Below, piece after piece: positions 8,956-54,466 of a stretch of DNA of 54,466 bases. The translations under genes were made by a program, and so were the position numbers. Source of the stretch: a virus (lineage: Duplodnaviria; Caudoviricetes); the IMG/VR virus record IMGVR_UViG_3300031965_000432, positions 1 through 54,466 of that record; one strand, given 5' to 3'. Below the pieces are notes generated by a model. It searched no databases. It was not told the origin of the DNA and saw nothing but the letters and a program-made list of their open reading frames with translations. Position 1 is the first letter of the stretch. Each line of letters opens with the position of its first letter.

Positions 8956-9002
8956 ACGTACTCGACGGGGCGATGATAGCAAACCCTAAGCGCCCCGCTG
9001 CG

Positions 9003-31833: not shown

Positions 31834-31836
31834 ACT

Positions 31837-31958
31837 CACCCTCCGATGATGGCCGGCGCGCGCTCGGAGGGTGTTCCCCACGCGCGCCGGCCATACTCAT
31901 GCTACACGATGGGCGCGCCGGGTCCCGGAGGAAGCCAGCACACACGGCGCGCCCAATC
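31837..31958 (-). promoter_or_regulatory. structured leader with anti-SD pseudoknot candidate
   Basis: 14-bp stem 31849-31862/31881-31894; loop segment 31864-31873 complementary to 31837-31846, which covers the SD; second 10-bp stem 31911-31920/31945-31954. Confidence 0.6.
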
Positions 31959-31970
31959 GAATCGTATCAG

Positions 31971-36084: not shown

Positions 36085-36119
36085 ATGGTGCAGCCTCGAC
36101 GCGCATTGGCGCTAGCGTA

Positions 36120-39004: not shown

Positions 39005-39385
39005 TCAGGAAAAAGTGTCGTCAAGGTCGCCCGTCGGCACGACGAACGAATCCCCGGCGTTGACGATCTTCGCCGACGTCAGCGCGCCGCCCTTGAGGAA
39101 CGTGCCGTCCGTGTTCGCCGTCCACACACCCACATGAGTCACGCCCGATCCGCCGACGGCGGGCATGTCCGCAAACGTGATATCGGCGTCGCTGGTAATA
39201 GCGCCCGTCGCGGCTGCAGCCATGCTTATCGCCTGGCGGATATAACTACCGCCAGCGATTTCGTTTGCGCCGGTCGTGCCCGGATCGCCGTCGTGCAACG
39301 ACAAAAACGGCGTTGCGACGGAGTACGCGTCGGCGTTGTATATCGCATCCAACAGTTCGTTAGCTAAGGTCTGACTGACGCCCAT
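39005..39385 (-). CDS. small virion structural protein
   Basis: LANELLD, LSLH.GDPG..GANE..GGSY.RQ, TH.G.W....G.FL..G.L...K.V..GD motif. Confidence 0.75.
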   Translation of the reverse strand: MGVSQTLANELLDAIYNADAYSVATPFLSLHDGDPGTTGANEIAGGSYIRQAISMAAAATGAITSDADITFADMPAVGGSGVTHVGVWTANTDGTFLKGGALTSAKIVNAGDSFVVPTGDLDDTFS

Positions 39386-42323
39386 TGCTCTCCGGCTCCT
39401 TTGGCTCGAACGACTCCACGATCTCCGAAATTAGACCACGCTCGTCTCGTACGACCCTGCGTACTCGCTGAATCCGTGCGCGATCCTGCGCCGGCGCCAT
39501 GCCCGCCGCTGCATCCGCCTCGTCGAACGCCTCCATGATCCGCTGTCGCGCATAAGGCACAAGGCTCTCGCGTACGTACGTAGCGTTCCGCGCCGTCGCC
39601 TGCCGTATACGCTGCTGGTCAAGGTCCGATAACATTCGCCCCGGCGCCGCGAGCCGGTACGCCTTCGGTAGTTCGCGATCACCGAGCGCAAGCAGTTCGG
39701 CCTCGAAGTCTTGTATCAGCGGTGGCAACCGGCGTGAGCGTTCTTCGGGCGCAAGGTCGAGTAGCTCACGCGCCGCGCGATCGATGAACCGCTGCGCCGA
39801 TGCTACGAGCTTGTCCTGGTACGCGTTGGTCGCACGTCCCATGCGCTCATGCGCGTCGCGGCCTTTGAGTGCTCGAGCGCCGCCCGTGGCCTGCGTACCG
39901 GATACGTCTTCGTCGACCATCTCGCCCTCAGTACGACCTTGCTCATTCGCCTGCGTATCGTCGTTGACGGCAGCGTTGGGCAGTTTGTCTTCTTCGGTCA
40001 TTAGGTCCAACGCCTCTTGTGGAATATCGCCATCCTGCTGGAGCAACTGACGCGCCACCGCCGGCGTGAGCACGCCCGTGGTTGTGTAGATCTGAAATCG
40101 TTCGGCACGAAGCTTTCTGGCCTGCTCCTCACGCTGCTCGAAATCCGGATCGGACTCATCCCATCGAAACGTCACGCTGCGAGGCAGTACGCCGTAGAAG
40201 TTCAGCAGATGGGCAAGCTTCTTTATGAACAGGCCCTGCCCCTTGCCCCGTGATTTCATCGCAAGGGTCTCGGCCTCGGCACCGGTACCAATCCCACGCC
40301 CCGGCAGCGGTGCAAAATCCTGGTAATCGCGCCCGAACGCCATCGCCACCTGTGCGATGTACCACTTGTTCCAGACCTCGTAGTCGAAGCCCTCGGGCAG
40401 GCTAGCGAGGTTGATCTGCGTTGTGTTGAGATTGAGGCTCGGATCAATTCCACCCATTAGCACTGGTGGCATGAACCGGACCGATCCACGGTTGTCCGCG
40501 TTCTCTTTGGCCTGTCGAATCGCATCCGTTATCTGCTTGGTCTGTACGCCGGATACTAGCCATATGCTCGTTGGGTCCCGCCCGGATATCTTTTCGTCCT
40601 GGTACTGCTGGACCGATCGCATGATCTGCGCCGCTTTGAGCACGCGGGTAAGCGCGCAGTTGTGAACCACCACGCCAGCCGTGATGAAGTTGTGATTTCC
40701 TTCGACATCGATGCAATACACGGTCTGTGCTGATGGCGGTCCATCCCGACTGACGACCGCGCGATCAATGAATCGTTCGGCCGTTCCAAGGTTCCACCGG
40801 CCCATATCAAACGGTTCAGATTCGGGCGGTAGCTTATAGCGCATGGAGGGCGGAACAAGGGGCGCGATGTACGCGAATAGGGCTGCGCTGCCTTTGACGC
40901 TGAACCCCAGGTGATAACCGTCGATGTCCTTACCGGCTCTATAGAGACGGCAATCGAACCCCGCCGCCGTGAGGATGTCGGCTGCGCCCTGAACATCTTC
41001 ATCGGGATACCCACATGTTCCGATTCGGGCCGTCGGACGGCGGTTGTGGTCATCGCTGAGGCGCTTGTAAATAGTGCCGTCGTCTAGGTACCACGCGGCC
41101 AATAGCTCAGGTGACAGGTGGCGCTTCAGAAGGTCCAGAGGAATGCGCTTCTCACCGTTCCGATAGAACGTCGAGCGCAATCCCACGAAAGCCGCCTGTG
41201 CTTTCGTCATGGAGTGCGACATGCCCCGCACTTCGTCGTGCCACTGAGTCCATCCGAATTCGGAGAGAGCCGCATGCTTGAGTTCTAGCCAGTCAGCATT
41301 GCGTGTTAGGTGCGAAACGGAGAGAGATGCGCGATCGCCAGTGCGCCGCATACTGGCATCGCCCAGCATGGTTCCAATGACGAGTCGTATCTGACGGCTG
41401 TTCGGAGACGGCGCCTCGGTCACGATGGGGTCGCCCGGTTGCAACCGCCCGGCGTTCACCCACCCACTCGGCGTCAGAATTGGATGGTCCTCGGTAACCC
41501 AAGAATTACGACTCTTGTCACCGCGCGTGAGTTGAGACAACGCTCCTCGCACGTTGACCCAAGAGCGACCGTTTCGCTGGTTTTCATACCAAGCCGTAAT
41601 TGGGCGTGGCTCCAACTCACCGCGCTCATTGACCGACAGCACAAGGCGATTTGATTTTTCACGTACTAGTGTGCGAATGCGTTCCGACGTTCCATCGGCC
41701 ATGCGTACCTGCGAATCGCCAGCTAGGCAATACTGGATCCCTCGATCCCACTCACTCGCGCTGGGAAGTTCGGCCACGATGATTACCTGGTGCCGCTTGA
41801 GCTCGTGGCGTTTACCCTCACGATCCCAGTAGACCACCGGTCGGAACGGATCACCCGTCCGCAGACATCGCCGCGCGTCTAGCGTCTTGATGCCCACTAC
41901 AGCATCGGTCTCGCTGGGGCCACGACGCACGATCTCGATGAATGCGCCATTGTCCTGGCTATACAGATCGAGGCTTAGCTGGGTGATGAATCCCGTCCAG
42001 CCATCGCCCCAGTTAGCCTCGTGGAGCATGTCCTGAGCGGCACGGACGGTATTCGGTGGGCCTTCAAGCTCCCACGTCAGAGACGCATTCTGGGCAGCGA
42101 CGGTGTAGACCGCGCTCGATAGCACGGTCTCTTGTGAGATGAACTGACGTAGCTTCTTGTCGCGCTCGCGGTGCGTCGACCATCCCCACGGCGGCGTATC
42201 GTCGGCGGCGCTCGCCAGCCACAGAACACCCTCGCTGCCGAACATGCCGCCGAAGCCCTGGCTCGGGTCGAATGGGTCCTCAACGGATCGGCGGATCGCC
42301 TGCGTCGAACGATCTTCTGCCAT
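39360..42323 (-). CDS. portal protein with intein and C-terminal extension
   Basis: Follows TerL; DNGAFIE, IA.AFG.D..DF, G..T....R; intein at 40659-41729. Confidence 0.8.
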   Translation of the reverse strand: MAEDRSTQAIRRSVEDPFDPSQGFGGMFGSEGVLWLASAADDTPPWGWSTHRERDKKLRQFISQETVLSSAVYTVAAQNASLTWELEGPPNTVRAAQDMLHEANWGDGWTGFITQLSLDLYSQDNGAFIEIVRRGPSETDAVVGIKTLDARRCLRTGDPFRPVVYWDREGKRHELKRHQVIIVAELPSASEWDRGIQYCLAGDSQVRMADGTSERIRTLVREKSNRLVLSVNERGELEPRPITAWYENQRNGRSWVNVRGALSQLTRGDKSRNSWVTEDHPILTPSGWVNAGRLQPGDPIVTEAPSPNSRQIRLVIGTMLGDASMRRTGDRASLSVSHLTRNADWLELKHAALSEFGWTQWHDEVRGMSHSMTKAQAAFVGLRSTFYRNGEKRIPLDLLKRHLSPELLAAWYLDDGTIYKRLSDDHNRRPTARIGTCGYPDEDVQGAADILTAAGFDCRLYRAGKDIDGYHLGFSVKGSAALFAYIAPLVPPSMRYKLPPESEPFDMGRWNLGTAERFIDRAVVSRDGPPSAQTVYCIDVEGNHNFITAGVVVHNCALTRVLKAAQIMRSVQQYQDEKISGRDPTSIWLVSGVQTKQITDAIRQAKENADNRGSVRFMPPVLMGGIDPSLNLNTTQINLASLPEGFDYEVWNKWYIAQVAMAFGRDYQDFAPLPGRGIGTGAEAETLAMKSRGKGQGLFIKKLAHLLNFYGVLPRSVTFRWDESDPDFEQREEQARKLRAERFQIYTTTGVLTPAVARQLLQQDGDIPQEALDLMTEEDKLPNAAVNDDTQANEQGRTEGEMVDEDVSGTQATGGARALKGRDAHERMGRATNAYQDKLVASAQRFIDRAARELLDLAPEERSRRLPPLIQDFEAELLALGDRELPKAYRLAAPGRMLSDLDQQRIRQATARNATYVRESLVPYARQRIMEAFDEADAAAGMAPAQDRARIQRVRRVVRDERGLISEIVESFEPKEPESNGRQSDLS
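40659..41729 (-). mobile_element. Portal intein with in-frame LAGLIDADG endonuclease
   Basis: CLAGDSQV, TEDHP, GTMLGDAS, AWYLDDG, VYCIDVEGNHNFITAGVVVHN|C. Confidence 0.93.
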
Positions 42324-42381: not shown

Positions 42382-44862
42382 TTACGCCTGGTATCGACGG
42401 GTCCATAGCCCGTAGCGAGTGCAGTCACAATTCGAAACAAGTATGCCGTTTGCTATGTACTCGTGCGCGCCCTCAACCGTTAGATTGAAAACGTCCGCGC
42501 GCTCCCCGAGATCGTCTACGTGTTCCACATAGTCGGGAGCAGAACCTAGCTCGATCGTATCGATTCGACGTGAAGAGCTGCCCACAAAGCTCGCATGGCT
42601 TGGTGACATTATCGAGCCCTTGAGCACGACGCCATGCGCTTTTACACCGGTTTGAACAAAACCGGGTGCCCTTGGCGTCGGCATTCCGAGATCGGTAACC
42701 CGCGCCGCACTGGTCACACTGGTAGTCCCGAAACGGGGCATTCGCCCAAATCCGTGCGCCGTGCAAGCGATGCCACGCTCTCCCCTCCGGCGACCGGTGC
42801 CAATGCACCGCTGCCCTTTGCGCCTTTGCCAATCCCTCCGGATTACCCGGATGCTCGTGAAGTCGTTGATGCGCAGTGCCCTCAATCGACTCAAGGTTTG
42901 AGAGGTTGTTGTTGAGCGGGTTTCCGTCCCGATGATGAACGTGCCATCCACGCGGGATCGTTCCATGCGCGGCTTTCCAGACGGCCCGGTGTAAGTACGT
43001 TTCACATCCACGCGTGTGTGTTCGCCGGTAGTAGGTTCGGAGAGAAATCTTTGGGCTGTTTGGGTAACGCCGATACTCGACGCCACCAAACACGATTCGG
43101 TCGACTGCCATACCAACATCCTATCACCGTATCGCAATCCATTCAACGGAACCCAGCCGCGCCCGTCGATCCAGACCGGGTGATTGGGCGTTCCCCGAAG
43201 TGCTCGGCCGTCACTGGTTGTGAGTGTCACCACGGGAACCAGTGATCCTGTCTGCGCCTGTCTAGTAACTAACCGCCACCCATACCGCGTCCACGCCCGG
43301 TCTCCAACGACCACCGATTCAATAGGGATATCGCCGCGTGCGGTAGTTACGAGCGTCCCGGCAGCGAAGCAACCATGGTCGTCAATCTTCACCGGCTTGG
43401 GCTGTCCGGTACCCTGCCGTGCCGTAGCCGCGTCGCCTTCCGCATAGTGTAGCGATTGCATCTCACGGATCAGGTTCCGGCAACGAGGATGCACGCGTAG
43501 TAATGCGCGGTCGTTGCCGTCACGCACGAACGAGCGTGTGACCTTGACGCCCTCCTCGACACTATGCGTCGCGCCGAAGGTCTGGATGCCCAGCTCCCAG
43601 ATGCGCGCCTTGAGTTCGACTGCGCTGGAATCCACGTAGGCGATCTCCGGCGCCGGCCACGGCCACGATGCACCTACGCTTAGGCCAGGTAGCTTTGCGC
43701 CTGCATCATGGCGGTCGTCGTCCTTGAGGTTCGGCCAGCGATCCAAGGCTTCGACCCGTACGCCTAGACAATCGGCCACGGTGCGCTCCGCTAGCGCCTG
43801 GGTCTGGTAGCACTCCCCGATAACGTTCACGCCGCCATCGGATCGTTCCTGTGCGAACAGTACGACGCGCGGATGGTAGCTAGCCGAGCCTGGTCCGCCG
43901 CCATGCGCGTAGCCATCATCGACCCACCATTCGATAGATCTCGCAGGGTCATACTCTGCGAGGTCATCCACGTTGTCGGTTGTCCAGTTGTCAAACACCA
44001 GCCCCTCGAGCCCGACGAACCGGCCTTCTAGCTCCTGCTCGGCCATCAGACCCACGTAGATGGCCTTGAGGCTGGCGTAGTACGCGGGGTCGAGGTTGTC
44101 GGCGTTCTGATCAATCGATCCGTGGAACGTCTCGATTAGCTGCTGGTCGCCGAGCGCCGCGCGAAGCGCCATGAGCACGCGCTCGGATTCCTCGGGGTCG
44201 TCGCTGAACTGCTGACGGTGCAGAACGTTATAGAGCCAGTGCCCAATGCCGCGCGGCGTGGTAGTGATCCACATCTGTGGGCTAGGTCCGACGCGTACAG
44301 TAGCCAGCAGCACGTCGAACGCGCCGCGGTCCATTTTCCGGGCCGCCTCATCGAACCAGACCCAATTGAGGTTCGGGCCTCGCCACGCGTCGGGATCTTC
44401 GATGCCGCCGTACCAGACGTTAGCGCCGGTGCTGAACGTTAGCCGTTTGTGCTGCTTGTTGTGGTTGGTGACGAGGTTCCAGGGTATCCAACGCTCCGCC
44501 TCGGGCCATGTGGATAGTGAGAAGTGCGGAACGTTCGGTCCCACTATGGCGCCGTCGAGCCCTCGCCATATGCGCGGCGCGCCTTTCTGGATGCCGGCGG
44601 CCGTCTTCCCCGAACCACGGCCACCGACGAATGCGGCCACGCGTGCCGTACTAGCTAGGAACGCGCGCTGCCCGTCGCCTAGCGGTTCGTAGGTAGTGCC
44701 GTCGGCCTTGGTAAATCGAAGCTCGTCGTCTGGTCTGGTGATACGGTTCGCAACGAGTCGCTTCTTAGCTTCGACACGCGCGACGGCAATCGCGAACGCT
44801 TCGCGTACGTGCGACGCGATCGGCTTAGATTCTGGACTGCTACGCGCCGGGCTTTGTAGCAT
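42382..44862 (-). CDS. terL: terminase large subunit with intein
   Basis: GGRGSGKT, WFDEAA, TTTPRG, nuclease motif DHG|CD; start could also be 44889. Confidence 0.93.
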   Translation of the reverse strand: MLQSPARSSPESKPIASHVREAFAIAVARVEAKKRLVANRITRPDDELRFTKADGTTYEPLGDGQRAFLASTARVAAFVGGRGSGKTAAGIQKGAPRIWRGLDGAIVGPNVPHFSLSTWPEAERWIPWNLVTNHNKQHKRLTFSTGANVWYGGIEDPDAWRGPNLNWVWFDEAARKMDRGAFDVLLATVRVGPSPQMWITTTPRGIGHWLYNVLHRQQFSDDPEESERVLMALRAALGDQQLIETFHGSIDQNADNLDPAYYASLKAIYVGLMAEQELEGRFVGLEGLVFDNWTTDNVDDLAEYDPARSIEWWVDDGYAHGGGPGSASYHPRVVLFAQERSDGGVNVIGECYQTQALAERTVADCLGVRVEALDRWPNLKDDDRHDAGAKLPGLSVGASWPWPAPEIAYVDSSAVELKARIWELGIQTFGATHSVEEGVKVTRSFVRDGNDRALLRVHPRCRNLIREMQSLHYAEGDAATARQGTGQPKPVKIDDHGCFAAGTLVTTARGDIPIESVVVGDRAWTRYGWRLVTRQAQTGSLVPVVTLTTSDGRALRGTPNHPVWIDGRGWVPLNGLRYGDRMLVWQSTESCLVASSIGVTQTAQRFLSEPTTGEHTRVDVKRTYTGPSGKPRMERSRVDGTFIIGTETRSTTTSQTLSRLRALRINDFTSIRVIRRDWQRRKGQRCIGTGRRRGERGIACTAHGFGRMPRFGTTSVTSAARVTDLGMPTPRAPGFVQTGVKAHGVVLKGSIMSPSHASFVGSSSRRIDTIELGSAPDYVEHVDDLGERADVFNLTVEGAHEYIANGILVSNCDCTRYGLWTRRYQA
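42473..43111 (-). CDS. HNH endonuclease with Zn fingers, overprinted in the TerL intein
   Basis: LHRAVW...VHHRDGNPLNNNLSNLE....H...H; CDQCG..FCSNRC, CELCG..FCSRLC. Confidence 0.9.
   Translation of the reverse strand: MAVDRIVFGGVEYRRYPNSPKISLRTYYRRTHTRGCETYLHRAVWKAAHGTIPRGWHVHHRDGNPLNNNLSNLESIEGTAHQRLHEHPGNPEGLAKAQRAAVHWHRSPEGRAWHRLHGARIWANAPFRDYQCDQCGAGYRSRNADAKGTRFCSNRCKSAWRRAQGLDNVTKPCELCGQLFTSNRYDRARFCSRLCGTRRRSRGARGRFQSNG
43118..43146 (-). promoter_or_regulatory. internal promoter for the nested HNH gene (leaderless)
   Basis: TTGAAT-17-TAGGAT with extended TG; 6 nt before ATG 43111. Confidence 0.7.
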
Positions 44863-45310
44863 CGGCCAGGATGCGCTCGGCTTCGGCAACGGCGGCGCGG
44901 CGATCCTCGTCGCTCAATGCGTACTGCTCAGACAACTTCTGTAGCTCTCCCTGCATATCGATCTTGATGGGCGCGTCGAGTCCTAGGTACTTAGCCCGGC
45001 GATCCATGACACGAAGGATTCGATCCGTTACCGCGTGATCCAGTCCCTCGGATGCTTTGGCACGCTTCCAAAGGAACTTTAGGAGCTCATCAAGCCGCTG
45101 CAACTCTAATTGCCGGATCGTATCGGCTGGTTCTCGTCCGCGCTCCTCTAACTCCATTTCGATGAACTGCGCAGCGCGTTGATAGCTCACGCCCAACTCA
45201 CTACCGATCTGGTGGAGCGTCTTTCCTTCGACTCGCATTTGGAGCGCGCGCACGGCTTTTATCCGGGTGTTCGCACGCATGACGGAGTGTGCGGTCGTTC
45301 TACGCTGCAT
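44840..45310 (-). CDS. terS: terminase small subunit
   Basis: HTH (GKTLHQIG.ELGVS), LELQRLD, RRAKYLGLDAP; upstream of TerL; TAGGCT-6 nt-ATG upstream. Confidence 0.8.
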   Translation of the reverse strand: MQRRTTAHSVMRANTRIKAVRALQMRVEGKTLHQIGSELGVSYQRAAQFIEMELEERGREPADTIRQLELQRLDELLKFLWKRAKASEGLDHAVTDRILRVMDRRAKYLGLDAPIKIDMQGELQKLSEQYALSDEDRRAAVAEAERILADATKPGA

Positions 45311-45319
45311 GGTTCAAGC

Positions 45320-45466
45320 CTACCGCAACCCGTACGGCGATGATGGTCGCAACGAGTCAATGATCCCTGCCCACCAAGCAACGATCACGGCCAGGAGCCC
45401 GAAGATCAGAACCCCGACGCCGGTCCACGTCAATGCTTTGGCCATTGATATTAGGTCCTGGACCAT
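45320..45466 (-). CDS. small membrane protein
   Basis: Single TM segment; GGAG SD. Confidence 0.5.
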   Translation of the reverse strand: MVQDLISMAKALTWTGVGVLIFGLLAVIVAWWAGIIDSLRPSSPYGLR

Positions 45467-45779
45467 TCTCCACCCTCCAGGATCGGCTGGCCGTTGTCGT
45501 GCCAACCAAGTAAACGATACTCCACTTTACCGAGTCGGGATGCGATTTTGCGTTCGGCGGCGATACCCTTGGAATCGTCCCATCCCTCCATGGTGGCATC
45601 GATCAGCAGCGCGTCGCAGGAGCCGAGGAATCGCTCGTCGAACGCTTGCCAGTACTCCCAGTCGGTCGGGCCTCCTGACCGAACAGCAAGTGGGTGCGAG
45701 TGCACAATCGGAGCGAACACCGGCCATGAGCCGCGTCGTAGCGGCGTTCGCGAACGCCAGAGTCGGAGAGTAGCTTCAT
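45451..45779 (-). pseudogene. degenerate second DUF1937 gene (5' deletions, frameshift)
   Basis: ATG 45779 (MKL.SDSGVRERRY) is 59 nt from, and out of frame with, VFAPIVHSH...CDALL..EGWDDSKG; the IYLASPY motif is missing. Confidence 0.65.
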
Positions 45780-46711
45780 CGTTTCACCTCGAATACGTGT
45801 TGGATCATCGGGGCACCGGACGGTCCTTTGAGATACGGCGCGATCCAGATCGTTCGATGTCGATCAAGCGACGGGTACCATTGAGATCGATAGTGACCTG
45901 ATACCCACCACTGATGCCGGTATTCACGGTCTGCCGCGTCGAAGTCTCGCTGGGCATTTGAGGCTTCGCGACGCAGGGTTACAACGTGGAGAAGCGTCTC
46001 TGTTGACATGTGCGCGTCGCGCAAAGACTTGCGAATTGGTCGTGAAAGATGCAGGAGACTCGAACTGACATATGGAGAATTTATAAAGGCAATAAGCTTT
46101 GTCAGAATAGCCCACTCACTCGCTTCCACCTCTTGATTAGACGCGTCATTGCCGCCCAACCGTTGCCCATAATGACCCGTACGCCCCACGACCCCCAATC
46201 TGTCCTTTGCAATTCTACCCCCCATATACAGGAGAAGATTGCCCCGCTCGGGATTGTCTACAACAACGGTCCAGCCCCAGTCGAGTTCCTTCGCGTGATC
46301 TTGATCGCGTAATACCAGCTCGCCTTGCCAGAGAATGCTCATGCTAGGGTGTGGGAGGTCTACGTTGAGTGTGTAATCTGGCAGCGGCGCCGCTAGTGCT
46401 ATCTCTAAAATCCGTCTTGTTATAAAGTATGTGGGTGAATCGTGCAGGGTAAGCGCTAGTAGTACCAATCCACGGAAATCTCCATCAAAAGGAGCGGCGC
46501 CCAGTGCGGGATCGACGTCGCCGACAAGGACAAGCCCCGCGACCATGAACTGATACCCAATCGCCTCTACCGGTCCGGCGGGCCCCCAACGGTCCTCAGG
46601 TCCCGCCACCTCCATAGCATGTCGCGCGAGCGGATGATTCCACCAGGCGCGTGCAAGCGCCTGTCGCTTTTCCTCACTGCGTACAAGTTCAGCAATTTCC
46701 GAGGCGTTCAC
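45776..46711 (-). CDS. hypothetical protein with conserved phage C-terminal motif
   Basis: W.VSGH.RSQWYPS...H..IWIAPY.KGP; visibly more AT-rich interior. Confidence 0.7.
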   Translation of the reverse strand: MNASEIAELVRSEEKRQALARAWWNHPLARHAMEVAGPEDRWGPAGPVEAIGYQFMVAGLVLVGDVDPALGAAPFDGDFRGLVLLALTLHDSPTYFITRRILEIALAAPLPDYTLNVDLPHPSMSILWQGELVLRDQDHAKELDWGWTVVVDNPERGNLLLYMGGRIAKDRLGVVGRTGHYGQRLGGNDASNQEVEASEWAILTKLIAFINSPYVSSSLLHLSRPIRKSLRDAHMSTETLLHVVTLRREASNAQRDFDAADREYRHQWWVSGHYRSQWYPSLDRHRTIWIAPYLKGPSGAPMIQHVFEVKR

Positions 46712-49071
46712 CGCAACCCTCCGATCACTGAATGAACCACGTTCTCACGCTTCTCAAGCGCTCGGTATATAGCCCCGTCAATCGTCCCCTGCGCCACGAG
46801 GTGTACGTACGTCACGTTTCGCCCCTGGCCGGGCCGCAAGACGCGTGCCCTCGCCTGGTCATACTCCGCCAAACTATGCGATAACGAATAGAAAACACAG
46901 TACCGCGCCTGTACGAGTGAGATACCAAGTCCGCCGGCTTGGATCTGTACCGCGATCAATGGCGCCGTGCCGTGCGACTCGCCATTGCGTCTACCCCAAT
47001 CCGCGTACTGATTCATGCGCCCAGATATCTCCAGGTAGGGACGGTGAGCCATTTGGCTCACCGCGCGAATCGCATCCAGGTCCGCATGGAATCGTCCGAA
47101 CACCGCCACCGGTTCAGTAGGGTCGATGTCTTCCAATAAATCCGCCAGCGCGCGAGCCTTGGCGTGTGACACGCGACGTTCGACGCCATCGTCGTCAGTC
47201 ACCACGCCGCCGGTAGTCTGCTGCAATCGCAGGATTCGAACCAGCGCATTGGCCGCCGTGACCGTACCGTCAGCGATGTCCGCGATCAGGTCGCGCTCCA
47301 GCTTCCGGTAAAACCGCCGCGCCTCCGGCTCGAGCTCGCACACACGTTGCAGGTCCACGTGGTCCGGTAGGTCGATAACGTCGGCAGTCTCGACGCGGGT
47401 GGCTATCGACCACATTCGCGCCTTGAGATCATCGAGATTGTGCCAGGCCCACGGCTGTAGTATGCCCGCACGCATTGACGTTACGCCGTCGTGTGAGCCC
47501 CAGCGCGCGGGTCGTGTGTATCGCGCCTTGAACGAGGTGAACGTCCACGGCACGCCGCCCGTGCTGTACACCCGCGGCTCTATCGCTCGATACTGCGCAT
47601 AGATGCCGAGCGGTCCGTCGGCGCCGCTGATAGGCGTACCGGTTAGCTCTAGACGATGCGGAATGCCCGATGCGATCTTGGCGACCATGCGCGACTGCTT
47701 ACCGGCGGGGGCTTTCATGCGGTGGCAGTTGTGGACCAGTAGTCCGCCCGCGAAGTAGTTTCCCGTTTCAGTCTCTAGGTTGTAGACCGTACGGCGTCTA
47801 GGACCGTGTTCGCCACTGCGTCCAGGTCGCTCATCACTTCGGGATTCTTGAACCTCAGCACGCGCCAGCCATGATCTCGGAGCCAGGAATCCTTCCGCGC
47901 ATCCGCGGCCCGCACCCGCGAGGTTTCGTGAGATTGCCCGTCCACCTCGATTGCGATCTTTAACACCGGGTCCGCGATATCGATCTTGTAGTGAGGCGGC
48001 TTGCCCTTGGTGCGCGTACCTGTCCTCACCACGACCTCGGTGGCCCACCCCAGCCGCGCTGCTAATAGTCGCTGCGGAACTGAAAGCGGCTTCCCGTTTC
48101 CCCCATTGAGGTGCGCGTATCCCCGCTCGCGTAATGCGATCTGAGACTTCCGCTGAACCCGCGGATCGTTGAATGGATTGGTCGGACCCGATAAATGCCG
48201 CGCGAGCTTGGCTTGTACCTCGGGGCGCGAACGTATCTGATTCATTGCCACGCGCGCCTTCGCCACTAAGTCGGGGCGATTCCGCATACGCCAGCGTCCT
48301 GAACACCTCTTGCCGCAAAACTCCGCACTTGCCCTCCGGCCCATAAAGGAGCGACCGCACTCCTTGCAAAGCCCCGGAAATCGAAGCGGGTTCTTGTATG
48401 GCACACGGGGATTTTATCACAGTGAGGCCCGCTGCGTCTAGTGCCTTTACGTACCCAACCTCTTGTGTCCACACCGGATGTTCCGGCGTCATCGCCACCC
48501 CATTGACTTGCACGAGGTCGCCGACAAAGGCGCGGCTGAATGTAGACCGCACACGAGTTGGCACTACAATCCCGTCCCGCTCGCCCCACACCGCATCGCC
48601 TTCACGGAGCGCCTCGATCGGTACGGTCCCAGCAGGCGTGTCAACCGCGGTGCCAGCCGGAAAACACTCATCGCAGATAAGCGCATCCCATTCCGTGGCT
48701 GCCAGCATCTCGCCGAACTTATTGCCAAGCGGGATAGCCTCGTAATTCACGATCGCGGTTACCGGGTGGTTCCACGTCAATGCTTTCTTGATTTGCGCCA
48801 TGCGCTCTTTGACGGGCCCGGATGCTAGTTCGGTAACGATCGGATCGAACGTTGCAAACTGCTCGAGCTGGCCAGCCCAAACGCCGCTCGCGACCGACTT
48901 AGGTGCAAGGATCAGCGTCCGTCGTGGTCGGGTCTCGTTCAGGCACTCAATAGCCGTCCGGCTCTTGCCGGCACCCATGTCGCTAAAGTTGGCCGCGCCT
49001 CGGCCTTGCGCCCAGAGTGCTAGATGGTGGTCGCGGTGGGCGATCTGGTGGGGCCAGGGAGCGCTCATCAC
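46708..49071 (-). CDS. SNF2-family SF2 helicase with intein
   Basis: DMGAGKS, LAP, NYE, ICDE|CH, LTGTP, GGLGISL, QARARVLRPGQ. Confidence 0.93.
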   Translation of the reverse strand: MMSAPWPHQIAHRDHHLALWAQGRGAANFSDMGAGKSRTAIECLNETRPRRTLILAPKSVASGVWAGQLEQFATFDPIVTELASGPVKERMAQIKKALTWNHPVTAIVNYEAIPLGNKFGEMLAATEWDALICDECFPAGTAVDTPAGTVPIEALREGDAVWGERDGIVVPTRVRSTFSRAFVGDLVQVNGVAMTPEHPVWTQEVGYVKALDAAGLTVIKSPCAIQEPASISGALQGVRSLLYGPEGKCGVLRQEVFRTLAYAESPRLSGEGARGNESDTFAPRGTSQARAAFIGSDQSIQRSAGSAEVSDRITRAGIRAPQWGKREAAFSSAATISSAAGVGHRGRGEDRYAHQGQAASLQDRYRGPGVKDRNRGGRAISRNLAGAGRGCAEGFLAPRSWLARAEVQESRSDERPGRSGEHGPRRRTVYNLETETGNYFAGGLLVHNCHRMKAPAGKQSRMVAKIASGIPHRLELTGTPISGADGPLGIYAQYRAIEPRVYSTGGVPWTFTSFKARYTRPARWGSHDGVTSMRAGILQPWAWHNLDDLKARMWSIATRVETADVIDLPDHVDLQRVCELEPEARRFYRKLERDLIADIADGTVTAANALVRILRLQQTTGGVVTDDDGVERRVSHAKARALADLLEDIDPTEPVAVFGRFHADLDAIRAVSQMAHRPYLEISGRMNQYADWGRRNGESHGTAPLIAVQIQAGGLGISLVQARYCVFYSLSHSLAEYDQARARVLRPGQGRNVTYVHLVAQGTIDGAIYRALEKRENVVHSVIGGLR
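47775..48404 (-). CDS. DUF559/Vsr-like PD-(D/E)XK endonuclease with N-terminal Zn finger, overprinted in the SNF2 intein
   Basis: CKECG..FCGKRC; YKIDIA...IAIEVDGQSH....D..KD.WL...GWRVLRF.N. Confidence 0.9.
   Translation of the reverse strand: MPYKNPLRFPGLCKECGRSFMGRRASAEFCGKRCSGRWRMRNRPDLVAKARVAMNQIRSRPEVQAKLARHLSGPTNPFNDPRVQRKSQIALRERGYAHLNGGNGKPLSVPQRLLAARLGWATEVVVRTGTRTKGKPPHYKIDIADPVLKIAIEVDGQSHETSRVRAADARKDSWLRDHGWRVLRFKNPEVMSDLDAVANTVLDAVRSTT
48411..48440 (-). promoter_or_regulatory. internal promoter for the nested DUF559 gene (leaderless)
   Basis: TAGACG-18-TAAAAT with extended TG; 6 nt before GTG 48404. Confidence 0.7.
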
Positions 49072-49589
49072 TTCACCCCCAACGGAGCGCGCCCTAGAAT
49101 ATGTATTGCCTCAAGCTCTAGTAGTTCGTCAATCCGAAGAATCACCTCGTTGCGAGTCAGGTCTTCGCCTAAATATCTAGCTGCGTAGTGTCCGGCCACG
49201 TAGGGACGGAACCACTCAGAATGAGTAAACATCCACGGGCGATCCATCTTGACTTTACCTTGAATCGTTAGGTGGCAGCGCTGGCAGAGCGCCACGAGAT
49301 TCCACCAGCGGCAGTCTGACTTATCCCCGTTCAGATGGTGCACTGTGAGGATGCGCCATTGCGCCTCGAATCCAACCAGCCCGACCGGCCTCGTCGGTCC
49401 GTCGTGGAGGCAGTGGTCGTCACAGCGAGTCCATTCGCCCGACCCCATGGCGCCGACTCGATACGGATGCTGGCACCGCACGCAGCGATGATGTGCCCGT
49501 GTACGCACGCAGTCGCCAATTGAATCCCAAACGGTTGGGTAGCCGTCCCGGCGGAGTTCGTTGGCGGTGTAGCGCCTGAATATGGTCAT
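49068..49589 (-). CDS. HNH endonuclease-domain protein
   Basis: RCVRC...LTVHHLNGDKSDC...NLVALCQRCH. Confidence 0.85.
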   Translation of the reverse strand: MTIFRRYTANELRRDGYPTVWDSIGDCVRTRAHHRCVRCQHPYRVGAMGSGEWTRCDDHCLHDGPTRPVGLVGFEAQWRILTVHHLNGDKSDCRWWNLVALCQRCHLTIQGKVKMDRPWMFTHSEWFRPYVAGHYAARYLGEDLTRNEVILRIDELLELEAIHILGRAPLGVK

Positions 49590-51082
49590 CCTTCCCTCCA
49601 TGCGCCGACGCTAGTACGTCCGCTGGTTGTCGATCCTTCTACCATTAGTGATCCTCGTCTCCATCCGGCCTGCGTCAGTCGTTTGTATACGTCACTGATA
49701 TCTAGCTTCCGGTACCCGTTGTGAAATAGCCGACCGTGTAATTGCTGAGGGCGAAGCCATAGCCGCCCATTGATACGGACGATGCTCTGATTCAATGCGC
49801 TACGCAGTTCGTCAGGCTCGGGCTCGTCTATCACTGGCTGAATTTCTGTCCAGTGTGAGAGCCAATCCTCCACGATCTCTCGAGCGTCGGTCGGTTCGAA
49901 CTGCTCGATCCTTACAAGCGACCGCATCGCGGCCGCCCAGCGAAGCCACTCGGGCGCCTTAACTGGCTTGAGGATCAGCGGCCCGCCGTCTAGGAGGCGA
50001 TGCCGGATAGTGGTTTGATCGCCGATTCTCGGACCCAGTGAAACCGAACGGCCGTCCCGAAACCGGAGTGTGTATTCCGGGTTTGCGCCTTGCGATAGCG
50101 ACCAGTCCGCCACGGATGGCACGTCTAATACCGCCATGGCCAGTAGTGCGTCTACATGGTCGATGCGGTCCTTCGGGGTAAGGCTTTTTATATCCGCGTC
50201 GGGGATTGCCAGGCGGAGCGCTCGTGTCCGTCGCTGCTCGCTTCGTAGATGCGTCCGGTGAACAGATTCCGCGATACCTCGCACTTCCTTATCCGACAGC
50301 TTCGGATCGCAAAGACGTGCGTTCACTCCATGTAGTTGCTGCAGCACCGATTCGAGCGCCTCGCCCTTGCCGTAAAAGTGTCCGGCGATCTGGGTCAGTG
50401 CAAGGTTGCGAAGACCCGATGGGATAGACATCAGCATTACCCGCTGGATGTCGAACGGCTCGTCGTCTACTACATAGATCGACGAACTCAGCGCAGATAC
50501 GACCTGGAAGCTTTGAATGATGTGCGCGGGGCATGGCGGAATTGTCGTATCCCACGGTTCCGCCGACGCCTCCCACGTGTACGGTCTCCCAGATGCGTGC
50601 ATGGACGGTGGCGCCACGACGTATCCTCGGGCTGCCTTGATGTCGATGCCTGGTAGTATTGGGCGACTACGCAAGTCCAGTTCCGAGGGCCACTGGTAGT
50701 AGTAGTGCTGACCACCGCTACCGGTGATGCACACCGGTCCGTCCGGCAGCGCGCCGTGCTTTTCGATAAGTTCCTCTAGCGACGCCTCGCCGCCATGACG
50801 CGGATCGATATCAAGAACGACTAGACCGGCCAGCTTCCCCGTAAGCACGCCTATGTTCGCGTCCGGCCAGCGTTGCCACCAAGCGGACACCGCTTCGCGT
50901 GTTGGGTGGGCATCCCACAGCGGCGCCAGCTCACCCTCCGCTAGCCGCGGATGCTTACCAGGATGCCCACAGGTCGCGTCACCGCAACTACACCGGCCAT
51001 CCGTCGGCGTATGCAACGGAACGACGCCCCAGCCAAGGGCGACTAGTCGCAGGGGATCTTCCGCTCCGCGCGTCACCTGCAT
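49586..51082 (-). CDS. bifunctional DNA primase/polymerase (Prim-Pol + PriCT-1)
   Basis: CSCG...C..PGKHP, NIGVLTG, VLDID, TGSGGQHYY, GIDIK...GYVVAPPS.H, G.RN..L. Confidence 0.93.
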   Translation of the reverse strand: MQVTRGAEDPLRLVALGWGVVPLHTPTDGRCSCGDATCGHPGKHPRLAEGELAPLWDAHPTREAVSAWWQRWPDANIGVLTGKLAGLVVLDIDPRHGGEASLEELIEKHGALPDGPVCITGSGGQHYYYQWPSELDLRSRPILPGIDIKAARGYVVAPPSMHASGRPYTWEASAEPWDTTIPPCPAHIIQSFQVVSALSSSIYVVDDEPFDIQRVMLMSIPSGLRNLALTQIAGHFYGKGEALESVLQQLHGVNARLCDPKLSDKEVRGIAESVHRTHLRSEQRRTRALRLAIPDADIKSLTPKDRIDHVDALLAMAVLDVPSVADWSLSQGANPEYTLRFRDGRSVSLGPRIGDQTTIRHRLLDGGPLILKPVKAPEWLRWAAAMRSLVRIEQFEPTDAREIVEDWLSHWTEIQPVIDEPEPDELRSALNQSIVRINGRLWLRPQQLHGRLFHNGYRKLDISDVYKRLTQAGWRRGSLMVEGSTTSGRTSVGAWREG

Positions 51083-51255
51083 ACGCCTGCATACGCCGTG
51101 AATACGCGCCTAATGGGGCTCTCTAACAGAAGTGAATACGCTGAATAGCGTATTCTGGCAAAAAAGTGGAGGGCCGCTTTTTTTCTTAAAAGGGCATATT
51201 CGGCGTATTCATACCTGTTAGCTAGGCGTATTCTGCGCGTATTCAGCGCGTATTC
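51080..51255. repeat. iteron-like GAATACGC cluster, putative replication origin
   Basis: GAATACGC at 51100 and 51134; GCGTATTC at 51148, 51203, 51226, 51237 and 51248; CATACGC at 51080 and 51090; A/T tracts at 51160-51191. Confidence 0.7.
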
Positions 51256-51302
51256 CTGTCGGCGCAAGAAAAGGAACGGCCTTCGCAGATGCCCAGAGGG
51301 AG

Positions 51303-51453
51303 GCTGCCAAGCAACCCAAAGGAATTGGTGCGAAGGCCGTTGTCGCCATGATACCTACCTTCTGACTTGAGCACCCCAACTCCTTTTGTTGCTTGGCAGC
51401 AAGACAAACGTACATGCGCGCCGTGGCGATGTCAAATGCCACGGCGCGCATGT
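51303..51453 (-). other. structured non-coding segment (two hairpins)
   Basis: 13-bp gctgccaagcaac/gttgcttggcagc (51303-51315/51388-51400) plus inner pairing; 16-bp perfect stem 51412-51453. Confidence 0.65.
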
Positions 51454-51455
51454 CA

Positions 51456-52154
51456 CTACGCCGCGTCCGCTTGCGCGACGGGGATGCCCTTCAGCGCAGG
51501 CACGAGCCGAGCTGCATACACGCGGATCGCGTCGGACTCCTCGGCGGCGAGTGGCTCGCCCCGCCGGAACACCGGCCGGGAGTACCCGACGCCGCCCTTG
51601 CTCTGGGTCTTCTCGAGCGTAATCACCGTCTCGACGCCGAACGGATCCGTATTGGTATCGAACAGCGCGAGATTGTAGACGTACGCCGCTCGGAACGCCG
51701 ACGGCGGCGCCGGGAAGTACAGCGGCAGCCGGTGGCCGGGCTGCAGCAGAAAAACCCGCGTGATATGCCTGCAAGCCTGCGCGTTGCCGCCATCCGGCTT
51801 GCTGCCCCATTGCGACAGCGGGCAGGTTAGGCAGTCTCCACCCGGATCGCCGTGGCCAGTCACCGCATCCTGTGACGAACAATCGGGTGGCTGCCCGCCG
51901 CCCGTATCCTCAATCGAACCCGCCCAATACGCGCGCACCGGCTGCCGCAGGATCATTACCCCGCGAAGCTCTTTCGTGGCGTCGCCCGATGGCAACTCAA
52001 AATTGAGCCCGCCGCCGGCGGGAACTTTGACGGTCGGCAGTACCGTCACATCGATCGCGCCGCCGCCAGCCGCCATCTCCGCGAACTGGCGGGCGACGTC
52101 ATCATTGATCGTGAGCGCGTACGACTCGCGCGTTGCAAGTGAATCCTTACCCAT
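51456..52154 (-). CDS. putative ssDNA-binding/recombination protein
   Basis: KVPAGGG..F, RAYW..PPDCSS.D, C..CP.SQWGS, AC; position in the replication module. Confidence 0.6.
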   Translation of the reverse strand: MGKDSLATRESYALTINDDVARQFAEMAAGGGAIDVTVLPTVKVPAGGGLNFELPSGDATKELRGVMILRQPVRAYWAGSIEDTGGGQPPDCSSQDAVTGHGDPGGDCLTCPLSQWGSKPDGGNAQACRHITRVFLLQPGHRLPLYFPAPPSAFRAAYVYNLALFDTNTDPFGVETVITLEKTQSKGGVGYSRPVFRRGEPLAAEESDAIRVYAARLVPALKGIPVAQADAA

Positions 52155-52196
52155 TGAGCATTGCTCCTTGAAATATGAACTTTGGTCCGTGTGCGG

Positions 52197-52589
52197 TTAC
52201 GAGCCGCGAACGCGTAGCCCCGTCCGTTTCTCGACCTTGAGCGCGCCACGGATTGACTCAGGGATGGTGGCTAGCGTTCCCTCTCGTTCATGCTCTTGGT
52301 ACCACGCCCGTAACTTCGGATGCGAAATCGTTACGAGCTCAAGCAATCCGTTATCACTGAACAGCGAGTGCAGTAGCGCCGTATCGCCGCCGACCAGCGT
52401 TGACGTGTGTGAGTAGACCGTTTGGCCTGCGTCTGTCTTGACGGACGTTACGCGCTCGGCTAGGAACTCCTCGAGCAGCGCCGCCTCGACGGCAACTAAC
52501 TCGTCCTTGGCCTCTCGAAGCTCGGCCTCGAGCGCGCGTTTGCGCTCCGTGGCGTCCGTGAACCGGTCGACTAAGTGCGGTGTGGGCAT
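52197..52589 (-). CDS. conserved phage replication-module hypothetical protein
   Basis: N-terminal coiled coil, V.SVKT..G.T, H..LRAW..E; first gene after the leftward promoter. Confidence 0.65.
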   Translation of the reverse strand: MPTPHLVDRFTDATERKRALEAELREAKDELVAVEAALLEEFLAERVTSVKTDAGQTVYSHTSTLVGGDTALLHSLFSDNGLLELVTISHPKLRAWYQEHEREGTLATIPESIRGALKVEKRTGLRVRGS

Positions 52590-52626
52590 TGATCGTTCCT
52601 CCATGCGCTACGTCACCCGTAGCAGG

Positions 52627-52659
52627 TGCTAGAATAGCGCGTACATGCGTTCACGTCAA
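52627..52659. promoter_or_regulatory. overlapping divergent promoters
   Basis: Minus: TTGACG-17-TATTCT (52659-52631). Plus: extended -10 TGcTAGAAT (52627-52635). Confidence 0.65.
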
Positions 52660-52673
52660 ACGAAGGGGCGTTT

Positions 52674-52886
52674 ATGGCTATAACGCCATTGACCGAAAAA
52701 ACGGCGCGTCGTTGCGCCTGTGGGTGCGGAGAGACGTTTATTCCGCGGCGCCGGAATCATCGCTACGTTTCCCCCGCGCATCGCATGGCGTACCATCGCC
52801 GTTCGACGCCGGCCATCCGACTCACTGAGCCGCGCATCCGGCGCATGATGGAAGCCGCGTTAGCCGCCGCGATGGAGTCGGAATGA
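52674..52886 (+). CDS. small Zn-finger protein
   Basis: CACGCGETF...Y.S..HR; AAGGGG SD; ATGA coupling to the HNH gene. Confidence 0.6.
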   Translation: MAITPLTEKTARRCACGCGETFIPRRRNHRYVSPAHRMAYHRRSTPAIRLTEPRIRRMMEAALAAAMESE

Positions 52887-53284
52887 CGCGGCGAGGTCGT
52901 CCACGCGCGCGGAACCTTCTAGAGACTCGAACGTGTGAAACGTGCCTCCAGCCGTACCATCCGTTAAAGGAAAAGCCGTTTCAGAAATACTGTTCGCGGC
53001 CGTGTGCAAACGCAGGCACGGCAAGACGGACAGCGGCGGCGAGAGCGGAAAGGCAACGCGGTCGCGGCGACGGCAAGGCGTACCGCAAGCTCAATGGTCG
53101 CCACATGCACCGCGTTATTGCGGAGGCTACTATCGGGCGCGCCCTTTTACCGAAGGAAGTAGTGCACCACATCAACGGGAACATCCTCGACAACCGTCCC
53201 GAAAACCTTGCCGTACTGCCGTCTCAGGGAGAACACGCGCGGATTCATGCGCGTGCTCGTAGAAAGGAGGTTGCCAAACAATGA
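52883..53284 (+). CDS. free-standing HNH endonuclease
   Basis: CETC..YCSRPC; HRVIAE..IGR.L...EVVHHINGN..DNRPENL....H..IH. Confidence 0.9.
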   Translation: MTRRGRPRARNLLETRTCETCLQPYHPLKEKPFQKYCSRPCANAGTARRTAAARAERQRGRGDGKAYRKLNGRHMHRVIAEATIGRALLPKEVVHHINGNILDNRPENLAVLPSQGEHARIHARARRKEVAKQ

Positions 53285-54466
53285 GCTTGCGTCGTCTCCG
53301 AATAGTCGGGCCGCCGGGCTCGGGTTGACAAAACCTCAACAATTAAGTCGATGTGCGAGCGCTGGGTCGACTCCGGCGAATACGAACCATCTGACTTCGT
53401 CCTAACGAGCTTCACCAAGGCCGCCGCCGTCGAGCTCGCTGGCCGTATCGACGTGCCCGAAGGGCACGCAACAACGATCCATGCGCTTTGCTACCAGGCG
53501 CTAGGCCGCCCGCCGATCGCCGAGAAAGGCGCATTGCTCAAGGAATGGAATGAGTCGTGTAAGCGCGACGACTGGAAGATCCCCGTTACGGGCGCAGGCC
53601 TTGACGACGGCGTGAGCGCGCAAGACGGTGCCGTAGGCGATGCGCTCAGCATGTATAGCCTAGGGCGCGCTCTCCTACATCCGCTAGATCACGTCTGGTA
53701 CGACCAAGGCTGGGAGCTTCGGGACTTTATCAAGACGTGGGAGGGATTCAAGCGAGACACGGATAGCATCGACTTCACAGACATGCTCACGATGGGCCTA
53801 GAGTCGGTGCCGAATCTTCCACAAACGCCGCGCGTACTACTTGTCGACGAGTGCCTGCCATACAGCTCACGGGTCACACTGGCCGACGGGTCAACACTGC
53901 CCATCGGGGAAGTTGTTCACCGCAAACTAGAGGCATCTGTTTTAGCCTTCGATGAAGCGAGCGGTCAGGTAGTTGCGCGAAGAATAGTTGGTTGGCGCGC
54001 GGTCCCCCGGCGGGAACGAAAAATTGTGGAGTACGGCGGACTGCGCGCGACGGAAGACCACCCGATATTTGTCGGCAACGGCATGTACATGCCGTTGCAC
54101 CGGGTTAGTATGTTGCACCGCGCTGTGCTATGCTTAGACCATGAAGCGATACAACGCGAGCGACGCTCTAACCCCTACGGAGCGATCGATTGTTCTCGGG
54201 TCGCTGCTTGGCGACGCTTCGATCTCCCGAAATCCCGGACCGGGCGGGAACGCCCGCGTGAAGTTTGTGCAGGGAGTGGCGCAGCACGACTACCTAACGT
54301 GGAAAATGCGGTCTCTCCAGCGCTGGGTGCGATCCCCGATTCAAGGACCACAAATCAGCGGCTTCGGGGGAATCGTCTACCAATTCTCCACAACATCACA
54401 CCCTGTCTTTACCGACCTGCATACATTGATCTACGCGGACAAGTGTCGGCAGAAGCGCATCAGTCT
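53281..54466 (+). CDS. UvrD-like helicase, 5' part; Walker A interrupted by 4 extra nt
   Basis: AAGGAGG SD, MSLRRLRIVGPPGSG-[TGAC]-KT, SFTKAAA.EL, TIHALC, DF.DML, LLVDE|C; frame from 53330 is open to the window end. Confidence 0.88.
54126..54134 (+). promoter_or_regulatory. internal extended -10 promoter for the nested LAGLIDADG gene (leaderless)
   Basis: TGcTATGCT, then 6 nt, then ATG 54141. Confidence 0.65.
54141..54466 (+). CDS. LAGLIDADG endonuclease, 5' part (continues at 1-593), overprinted in intein 1
   Basis: Hand-translated MKRYNASDALTPTERSIVLGSLLGDAS...QHDYLTWK...STTSHPVF..L...Y...KRI. Confidence 0.88.
   Translation, partial: MKRYNASDALTPTERSIVLGSLLGDASISRNPGPGGNARVKFVQGVAQHDYLTWKMRSLQRWVRSPIQGPQISGFGGIVYQFSTTSHPVFTDLHTLIYADKCRQKRIS

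Follow-up and report, generated by a model that had tools for sequence, protein, structure and literature searches.

A -10-like box in intein codons as a candidate promoter for leaderless expression of out-of-frame nuclease genes in a viral genome record

Inteins with an endonuclease encoded in another frame or antisense have recently been described in an actinophage survey (bioRxiv 10.1101/2025.01.02.630785) and for a cyanobacterial dnaX intein (bioRxiv 10.64898/2026.09.14.751524), and both preprints interpret such inteins as secondarily invaded by a free-standing endonuclease gene. How out-of-frame genes of this kind are expressed was left open in these 2025-26 papers, and without expression there is no homing; the word 'promoter' occurs 0 times in both preprint texts, and the dnaX paper names putative Shine-Dalgarno (SD) motifs only. 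Here, we analysed a DNA stretch of 54,466 bases (in the following: the window), which is the entire IMG/VR virus record IMGVR_UViG_3300031965_000432 (completeness estimate 73%, GC content about 0.61). Its genes for TerL, an SNF2-family helicase and a UvrD-like helicase each contain an intein in which a nuclease gene is nested, and each nuclease start codon is preceded by an extended -10-like box at the same distance. With moderate confidence, we suggest that this -10 box, written in intein codons, drives a leaderless mRNA of the out-of-frame nuclease gene.

Several described systems share parts of this arrangement. As in the preprint cases, the nuclease open reading frame (ORF) occupies the endonuclease region of the intein in a non-splicing frame, while the intein frame is open but unstructured. 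The cases given there are an endonuclease VII-like gene in frame 3, antisense LAGLIDADG and VSR-like genes and a +2-frame LAGLIDADG gene, whereas the window holds same-strand HNH_3, DUF559 and LAGLIDADG_2 genes in TerL, SNF2 and UvrD, respectively. Fractured genes with split inteins (PMC2677866) likewise have an independent endonuclease gene, including VSR-like ones, at the endonuclease position of the intein, but the host gene and its intein are split into two ORFs there, while in the window they form one uninterrupted ORF that spans the nuclease gene in another frame. In the case of the intron nucleases of phage T4 (PMC2988022), the homing endonuclease gene likewise lies within a phage gene, inside an element that removes itself by splicing, and has its own promoter, which uncouples its expression from the host gene. 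The elements of the window differ in being inteins, which act by protein splicing, and not RNA introns, and in having the promoter within translated coding sequence; the T4 mRNA is SD-led with a regulatory hairpin, whereas the mRNA in the window is predicted to be leaderless. Nothing points to group I introns in the window, since the host ORFs are continuous and contain Hint domains (no RNA-family search was made), and by this comparison the T4-type intron endonuclease is a functional analogue only. An I-TevI-like autorepression operator was considered and rejected: when each promoter region was aligned locally with the rejoined extein junction, the scores were 8-9 compared to a null of 7.1-7.3, and the fraction of shuffles reaching at least the observed score was 0.14-0.38.

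The ShiLan-domain HNH genes in mycobacteriophage methylases (PMC11855218) resemble the window genes in being out of frame, in their zinc-finger flanks, in a GTG start and in the lack of a detectable ribosome-binding site. Leaderless initiation in Mycobacterium is suggested by their authors, who have these genes translated 'from the larger transcript' and do not use the word 'promoter' (0 occurrences). The host element is not an intein there, and the box at a fixed distance in the window would offer a concrete route to a truly leaderless mRNA. For leaderless genes of Mycobacterium tuberculosis and other Actinomycetota, PMC3898074 reports a TANNNT hexamer that precedes the transcription start site (TSS) by 7-12 bp, no conserved -35 element, ATG as well as GTG start codons with the TSS on their A or G, and an over-representation of toxin-antitoxin-type genes. 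The 6-nucleotide (nt) spacer, the purine at +1, the pyrimidine at -1 and the T at +2 found in the window agree with this mycobacterial geometry. The promoters described there are mostly intergenic with TGn in 7%, whereas the boxes of the window lie inside a translated intein with TGn at 3/3 sites. Out-of-frame intein nucleases and T4 intron promoters are already known; the embedded -10 box that would give a leaderless nuclease mRNA is a new variation on them. In our searches, no publication described a promoter written into an intein for a nested nuclease. The supplementary list of phages with non-canonical endonucleases of the actinophage preprint may bear on the novelty of the same-strand HNH, DUF559 and LAGLIDADG cases.

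As evidence for an intein we required an N-terminal Cys or Ser, a block B motif TxxH, a C-terminal Asn followed by Cys, Ser or Thr at +1 and a match to a Hint or intein profile. All four features are present in the TerL, SNF2 and UvrD elements (Table 1), with C507, C136 and C168, respectively, as Cys1 residues and splicing itself predicted from sequence. E-values of Pfam Intein_splicing and Hint_2 within the inteins reach 1e-5 to 2e-8. The Hint_2 score of the SNF2 intein is above the gathering threshold (30.6 vs 28.4), while the profile scores of the TerL intein (33.5 vs 35.8 and 26.1 vs 28.4) and of the C-terminal part of the UvrD intein (34.7 vs 35.8) are just under it; in the TerL intein, Ser and not His precedes the terminal Asn.

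The Pfam scores of the nested nucleases exceed the gathering thresholds in all cases (HNH_3 52.1 vs 24.8, DUF559 49.7 vs 20.6, LAGLIDADG_2 55.8 vs 25). The initial annotation had called these genes nested nucleases, which is correct as to their position and needs one amendment: all three ORFs lie on the strand of the host gene, yet in a reading frame other than that of the intein. The C-terminal half of the LAGLIDADG ORF, found at the opposite end of the record, has the same frame offset to its host gene as the half at the record's end. Across the nuclease ORFs the intein frame is free of stops, forming an Arg/Gly/Ser-rich filler. As off-frame stop densities in the other genes of the window amount to 2-6% per codon, about 210 stop-free codons are unexpected by chance and both frames are therefore being maintained open. 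Judged by these sequence features, the three ORFs qualify as out-of-frame, intein-nested homing endonuclease genes. All three nucleases (P0002, P0004 and window 3..593), although from three catalytic families, carry zinc-ribbon-like repeats of the form CxxC...(F)CSxxC, and this common occurrence suggests a shared DNA-binding module.

Table 1 Features of the window discussed in the text (aa, amino acids).
Feature	Position	Strand	Remarks
TerL gene with intein	42382..44889	-	Pfam Terminase_3, Terminase_6N, Intein_splicing, Hint_2
TerL intein, 314 aa	42430..43371	-	Cys1 in CFAAGT, block B TPNH, VSN then Cys+1
Nested HNH endonuclease ORF, 212 aa	42473..43111	-	HNH_3 5e-14; -1 frame relative to TerL/intein
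Extended -10-like box TGaTAGGAT, TGATAGGAT	43126..43118	-	followed by gttggt and ATG 43111 (TerL intein)
-35-like TTGAAT	43146..43141	-	17 nt upstream of the TerL-intein -10 box
SNF2-family helicase gene with intein	46708..49071	-	SNF2-rel_dom, Helicase_C, Hint_2
SNF2 intein, 313 aa	47728..48666	-	CFPAGT, block B TPEH, VHN then Cys+1
Nested DUF559 (Vsr-like) ORF, 209 aa, GTG start	47775..48404	-	DUF559 3.7e-13; +1 frame relative to intein
Extended -10-like box TGaTAAAAT, TGATAAAAT	48419..48411	-	followed by ccccgt and GTG 48404 (SNF2 intein)
-35-like TAGACG	48435..48440	-	18 nt upstream of the SNF2-intein -10 box
UvrD-like helicase N-extein and intein N-part	53351..54466	+	Cys1 at 53852, block B TEDH; runs off record end
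Extended -10-like box TGcTATGCT, TGCTATGCT	54126..54134	+	followed by tagacc and ATG 54141 (UvrD intein)
Nested LAGLIDADG ORF, N-half	54141..54466	+	LAGLIDADG_2 6.9e-15; +1 frame relative to intein; cut by record end
Nested LAGLIDADG ORF, C-half	3..593	+	second LAGLIDADG motif and CxxC zinc-ribbon repeats (from translation)
UvrD intein C-part	1..637	+	VHN then Cys+1 at 637; Intein_splicing
UvrD C-extein	to 2581	+	UvrD-helicase, UvrD_C_2
987-aa gene, fourth intein with in-frame LAGLIDADG_2 (3.1e-17), adjoining TerL	39360..42323	-	internal negative control

The three box strings that had been noted initially are present in the sequence as described, with an identical spacing of 6 nt to the start codon. 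An extended -10 element of group 1 sigma factors is defined by TGn directly 5' of a TAnnnT hexamer, a pattern found at 3/3 sites of the window; initiation would then be expected about 7 nt downstream of the hexamer. A promoter scan flags TAGACG-18-TAAAAT with TG at the SNF2 site; agreement of the -35-like strings with TTGACA amounts to 4/6 positions at TerL and at SNF2, and no convincing -35 element was found at the UvrD site. At each of the three sites, the base at -1 is a pyrimidine, that at +1 a purine and that at +2 a T. Judged by the spacing, transcription would begin on the A or G of the start codon in all three cases, and no SD is present at the SNF2 and UvrD sites. Read in the intein frame, the boxes encode G-D-R-M (TerL), V-I-K-S (SNF2) and V-L-C-L (UvrD), employing minor codons such as AGG (4% of Arg), ATA (14% of Ile), AAA (25% of Lys) and TTA (4% of Leu).

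On both strands of the window, TGNTANNNT-N6-RTG has exactly three matches, all of which are starts of the nested nucleases, and each match falls on the first start codon that follows a stop in the frame of a Pfam-recognised nuclease ORF. A chance expectation for this placement has to consider that in-frame stops delimit an ORF and therefore raise the chance of TANNNT at in-frame offsets, which weakens a naive estimate. The fetched loci supplied 1,297 control ORFs, in which TANNNT occurred at rates of 2.5% at -12, 2.2% at -18 and 2.1% at -6, and of about 1% elsewhere. At the empirical rate of 2.5% for position -12, the 3/3 placement has a probability of 1.6e-5, with the TG not yet counted. It is the placement of the three boxes, not their number, which exceeds chance. 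Among 117 closed ORFs of at least 100 aa in the window, the TANNNT offset peaks at -12 with six ORFs, compared to 0-2 at the other offsets from -20 to -6, and first-start ORFs of this length numbered no more than 0, 1 and 1 with spacers of 5, 7 and 8 nt, respectively. Neither TANNNT-N6-RTG nor TGNTANNNT was found in the adjoining gene with the in-frame LAGLIDADG intein. TGNTANNNT as such is rarer in the window than expected (23 vs 38.8; 100/100 shuffles had at least 23), and four other copies are located in short intergenic gaps upstream of genes in correct orientation (8973..8981, 31961..31969 and 36114..36122 on the minus strand, 52627..52635 on the plus strand). Depletion together with correctly oriented intergenic copies fits the use of the motif as a real promoter signal in this phage.

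The initial annotation had called for a motif search upstream of homologous nested ORFs. For this comparison, start codons of the homologues were set by alignment to the query and not by motif. Relatives of the HNH ORF in viral contigs were nested in the same manner at 43/60 loci, 36 of which are distinct, in open host frames of 410-1131 aa, some of them cut by contig ends. Five scanned host ORFs of this family contain Hint/intein domains; three are terminases (L015, L019, L020), while L075 and L006 gave Hint/intein matches only. TANNNT is located at exactly -12 in eight of the 36 distinct loci, and the other 15 matches are spread over 14 offsets with at most two each. Three further nested HNH loci were obtained from genome contigs, the closest of which, from a metagenome-assembled genome labelled Thermoleophilaceae, has TGaTATGGT-6-ATG. 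Relatives of the LAGLIDADG ORF were nested at 6 of 67 loci, in UvrD-type host ORFs, with the box at -12 in two of the six, including TGcTACAAT-6-GTG in L079. DUF559 relatives were nested in helicase ORFs at 11/11 loci (six distinct; the scanned hosts L063 and L069 are SNF2/DEAD-type) and had the box at -12 in 0/6. L063 and L069 instead contain TGNTANNNT 25-35 nt upstream, followed by an SD (three matches in 2/6 loci vs 0.07 expected). A further query, P0006, had no relative in viral contigs and no match in cultured phages at 1e-6.

Taken over all nested homologues, TANNNT at -12 is thus enriched, with 11/51 cases (HNH 9/39, LAGLIDADG 2/6, DUF559 0/6) against a background of 0.46% per position in the same loci and of 2.5% in the control ORFs. 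The probability of at least 11 of 51 at the conservative rate of 2.5% is 4.5e-8, a value that is too small since the homologues are related to one another. The -12 hexamers vary (TACTCT, TATGGT, TATGCT, TAGACT, TAGCCT, TAATCT, TACCGT and others) and overlie different intein residues, with only T1, A2 and T6 being constant.

Phages with cultured hosts allow a comparison across host groups. Unannotated nested HNH ORFs are located inside the terminase genes of Tetrasphaera phage TJE1, Acinetobacter phage Highwayman, Clostridium phage phiCDHM19 and Rhodobacteraceae phage MD07, and nested DUF559 ORFs inside helicase genes of Corynebacterium phage phi673, Vibrio phages CP-T1, 1.088.O and 159E36-1 and Pseudomonas phage MR14. 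Both phages of actinobacterial hosts (2/2) have the box and no SD, namely TACATT-6-ATG in TJE1 and TAAGGT-6-ATG in phi673, the host of which is Corynebacterium glutamicum. In contrast, the -12 box is found in 0/7 phages of Acinetobacter, Clostridioides, Rhodobacteraceae, Vibrio (three phages) and Pseudomonas, all seven of which have an SD-like core; three of the seven additionally have a -10 hexamer further upstream. The hypergeometric probability of 2/2 vs 0/7 is 1 in 36. In the three Vibrio phages and the Pseudomonas phage (L152-L155), the GAGG SD of the nested DUF559 gene is written by the conserved D-E-V codons gac-gag-gtt of the intein; as read from these sequences, intein residues are co-opted as a ribosome-binding site. 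In phiCDHM19 (L147, record positions 2006..2058), a perfect TTGACA-17-TATAAT lies inside the TerL intein; 21 nt separate it from the nested GTG that follows, and this interval contains AAAGGAG. This consensus occurs at three sites in the 54,295 bases of phiCDHM19, and the other two are located in divergent regulatory intergenic regions, one of them beside a repressor gene. Embedded promoters hence appear to be a recurrent property of nested nuclease genes, and their leaderless form appears to track actinobacterial hosts.

How could a gene that is buried in a foreign frame of an essential gene be expressed? In the arrangement that we propose, the usual endonuclease region of each intein would have been replaced by a separate nuclease gene in another frame, which the intein frame traverses as a stop-free filler. 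At its end, the N-terminal splicing subdomain would have codons that also serve as a -10 element of the group 1 sigma type, with TGnTAnnnT at -15 to -7 of the start, and the TG would make up for a -35 element that, within coding sequence, can only be weak or is absent. RNA polymerase would start on the A or G of the ATG or GTG and produce a leaderless nuclease mRNA, and a start codon at the very 5' end would permit initiation without an SD and without competition from ribosomes translating the intein frame. What we infer is that the box is active as a promoter, that transcription starts at the first base of the ORF, that the host is an actinobacterium or otherwise prone to leaderless expression, and that the nuclease is expressed with a timing of its own, such as the early expression from a late gene that the initial annotation envisaged. 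A search for sequencing runs with positions 42400-52399 listed none from RNA, a result that has no bearing on expression. The box thus probably permits independent transcription of the nested gene, starting exactly at its start codon. The initial claim that intein coding sequence doubles as a promoter gains from the 11/51 homologues, from the 2/2 vs 0/7 distribution over hosts and from the phiCDHM19 consensus; its leaderless part is drawn from the spacing.

A number of observations weigh against this proposal. The count of three matches is by itself not significant, as the shuffle mean is 1.15 and 10/100 shuffles reach three. The relatedness of the homologues, which makes binomial P values too small, acts in the same direction. 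TGn is present in just 2/11 box-bearing homologues. With the window included, 40/54 nested sites have no -12 box, among them all six metagenomic DUF559 loci, and at 20 of these 40 there is neither a box nor an SD. An SD core is absent at 11/14 box sites and present at 20/40 box-less sites, a negative association without statistical significance (Fisher p = 0.11); being a trend only, it was not taken as evidence that box and SD exclude each other. Among cultured phages, TerL and both nested nucleases have their best matches in phages of Actinomycetota, with 24-43% identity, by which an actinobacterial affinity of the phage is only weakly indicated, with no firm host call. A megablast search of the TerL region against phages gave no match, and the window has no close relative among deposited phages. 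Further objections come from the coding context. In the nuclease frame, the TA of the TerL and SNF2 boxes belongs to a stop (TAG and TAA, respectively) preceded by TGA, which gives the tandem stops TGA-TAG and TGA-TAA four codons ahead of the start; the UvrD site has a TAG two codons ahead of it. The TerL box overlies conserved G-D-x-hydrophobic residues of the intein, and part of it therefore comes free. An AGGA within the same box, 6 nt from the ATG, is a possible SD, so that the earlier statement that no site has a strong SD holds for SNF2 and UvrD and not for TerL.

From these objections arises the strongest competing explanation, which we nevertheless regard as unlikely. According to it, there is no separate promoter, the nuclease is translated by internal initiation on the mRNA of the host gene, and the box is a by-product of stop codons, conserved intein residues and selection that favours an A/T-rich, unstructured start region. 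The tandem stops, the G-D-R-M residues and the AGGA of the TerL box are in line with it, as is the raised rate of in-frame TANNNT in the control ORFs, and internal initiation is clearly one solution within the family, as the GAGG written by D-E-V codons in proteobacterial phages demonstrates. However, a by-product of this kind does not account for a peak at the single offset of -12 (8/36 HNH loci), with nearly all others being single counts. Five of the eight -12 hexamers in these loci begin with TAT or TAC, which are not stops; for this reason, stop codons as the selected feature were rejected as a full explanation. The central NNN of the box is often G/C-rich and thus not a mere reflection of A/T richness, the SNF2 and UvrD sites lack any SD, and translation cannot explain the perfect -35/-10 consensus of phiCDHM19.

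It appears improbable to us that the boxes are real internal promoters serving chiefly the genes downstream of the intein, for instance the fourth-intein gene after TerL. No terminator-like site follows the nested ORFs, so transcripts would read into downstream genes, and T4 provides a precedent with promoters for essential genes inside endonuclease genes (PMC2988022). Such a role leaves unexplained why the distance to the nuclease start is fixed at 6 nt in three unrelated inteins and 11 homologues, and why the in-frame intein lacks the box. Even less probable is pure chance, with the nested ORFs as decaying passengers and the common string without function: the raw motif count and the 40/54 sites without a box would be compatible with it, but catalytic motifs and significant Pfam scores are kept in all three ORFs, and the exclusive placement, the enrichment in homologues and the dependence of the pattern on the host group speak against it. 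Programmed ribosomal frameshifting out of the intein frame, which would yield the nuclease as a fusion and for which the overlap of both frames over about 630 nt on the same strand could be cited, is hardly credible and was rejected, given the nuclease-frame stops 2-4 codons before each start, the opposite shifts needed (-1 in TerL but +1 in SNF2 and UvrD), the lack of a slippery heptamer in the few codons available and the own start codon of each ORF, the first after the stop.

With the embedded -10 box as the preferred reading for the window, a broader proposal can be made, on which we remain tentative and slightly on the doubting side. Nested nuclease genes may generally possess a host-adapted expression module of their own, encoded where the N-terminal splicing subdomain of the intein ends. 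In hosts of the Actinomycetota type, this module would be a -10 box 6 nt before the start that yields a leaderless mRNA. In Proteobacteria and Firmicutes, it would consist of a -10 element, sometimes with a -35 element, 20-40 nt upstream and an SD partly derived from D-E-V or G-D-x codons. The intein would then constitute a transcriptionally autonomous safe harbour, in which timing and level of nuclease expression are separate from those of the essential host gene.

A -10 box in intein codons is a concrete and testable answer to the question of expression, as it predicts the exact 5' ends of the transcripts. Mutations that are synonymous for the intein should silence the nuclease and leave the intein unaffected, and a switch between leaderless and SD-led expression should depend on the host. 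One stretch of DNA would accordingly hold three layers of information: the intein protein, the boundary of the nuclease ORF and a promoter. Many phage genes annotated as 'terminase' or 'helicase', including those of TJE1, phiCDHM19, CP-T1 and phi673, conceal an unannotated nuclease gene, and besides phi673, CP-T1 and MR14, many Vibrio phages also hide such nested ORFs. The box could help gene callers to locate nested starts and might hint at a leaderless-prone host.

Some other genes of the window bear on the use of the box. Two free-standing HNH_3 genes (49068..49601 on the minus strand, 52883..53284 on the plus strand) have a good SD, with GGAGG before the second ATG at 49589 and GGAG before 52883, in contrast to the nested genes. 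The first of them starts with TAGCGT-6-ATG at 49601 and was not counted as leaderless, since the second ATG 12 nt downstream has the GGAGG. Just upstream of TerL, a 156-aa helix-turn-helix protein (44840..45310, minus strand), which is probably the small terminase subunit, has TAGGCT-6-ATG and no SD, and is preceded by a gap of about 465 nt without a confident gene; by its sequence, this start is a candidate leaderless start of the packaging operon. The same pattern, TAGCGT-6-GTG, is found at the ORF 6721..7071.

The record is circularly permuted; both of its ends (1..637 and 53852..54466) lie inside the UvrD intein with its nested LAGLIDADG gene, and the relative frames of host gene and nuclease agree across the break. 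Its ends do not overlap, so a short piece is missing, and the completeness estimate given above may understate the genome. The UvrD-like helicase is apparently frameshifted at Walker A (53282..53360), where a short ORF ends with GPPGSG-stop and K-T-S-T follows in the +1 frame. The shift looks like an insertion of about 4 nt, the inserted bases of which create TTGACA, and could be a real frameshift, a sign of a pseudogene or an assembly error. Among the structural genes, two auxiliary genes on the minus strand are unusual, one for a family 2 glycosyltransferase-like protein (26320..27051) and one for a Polysacc_synt_2 dehydratase/epimerase (30889..31881, 1.6e-72).

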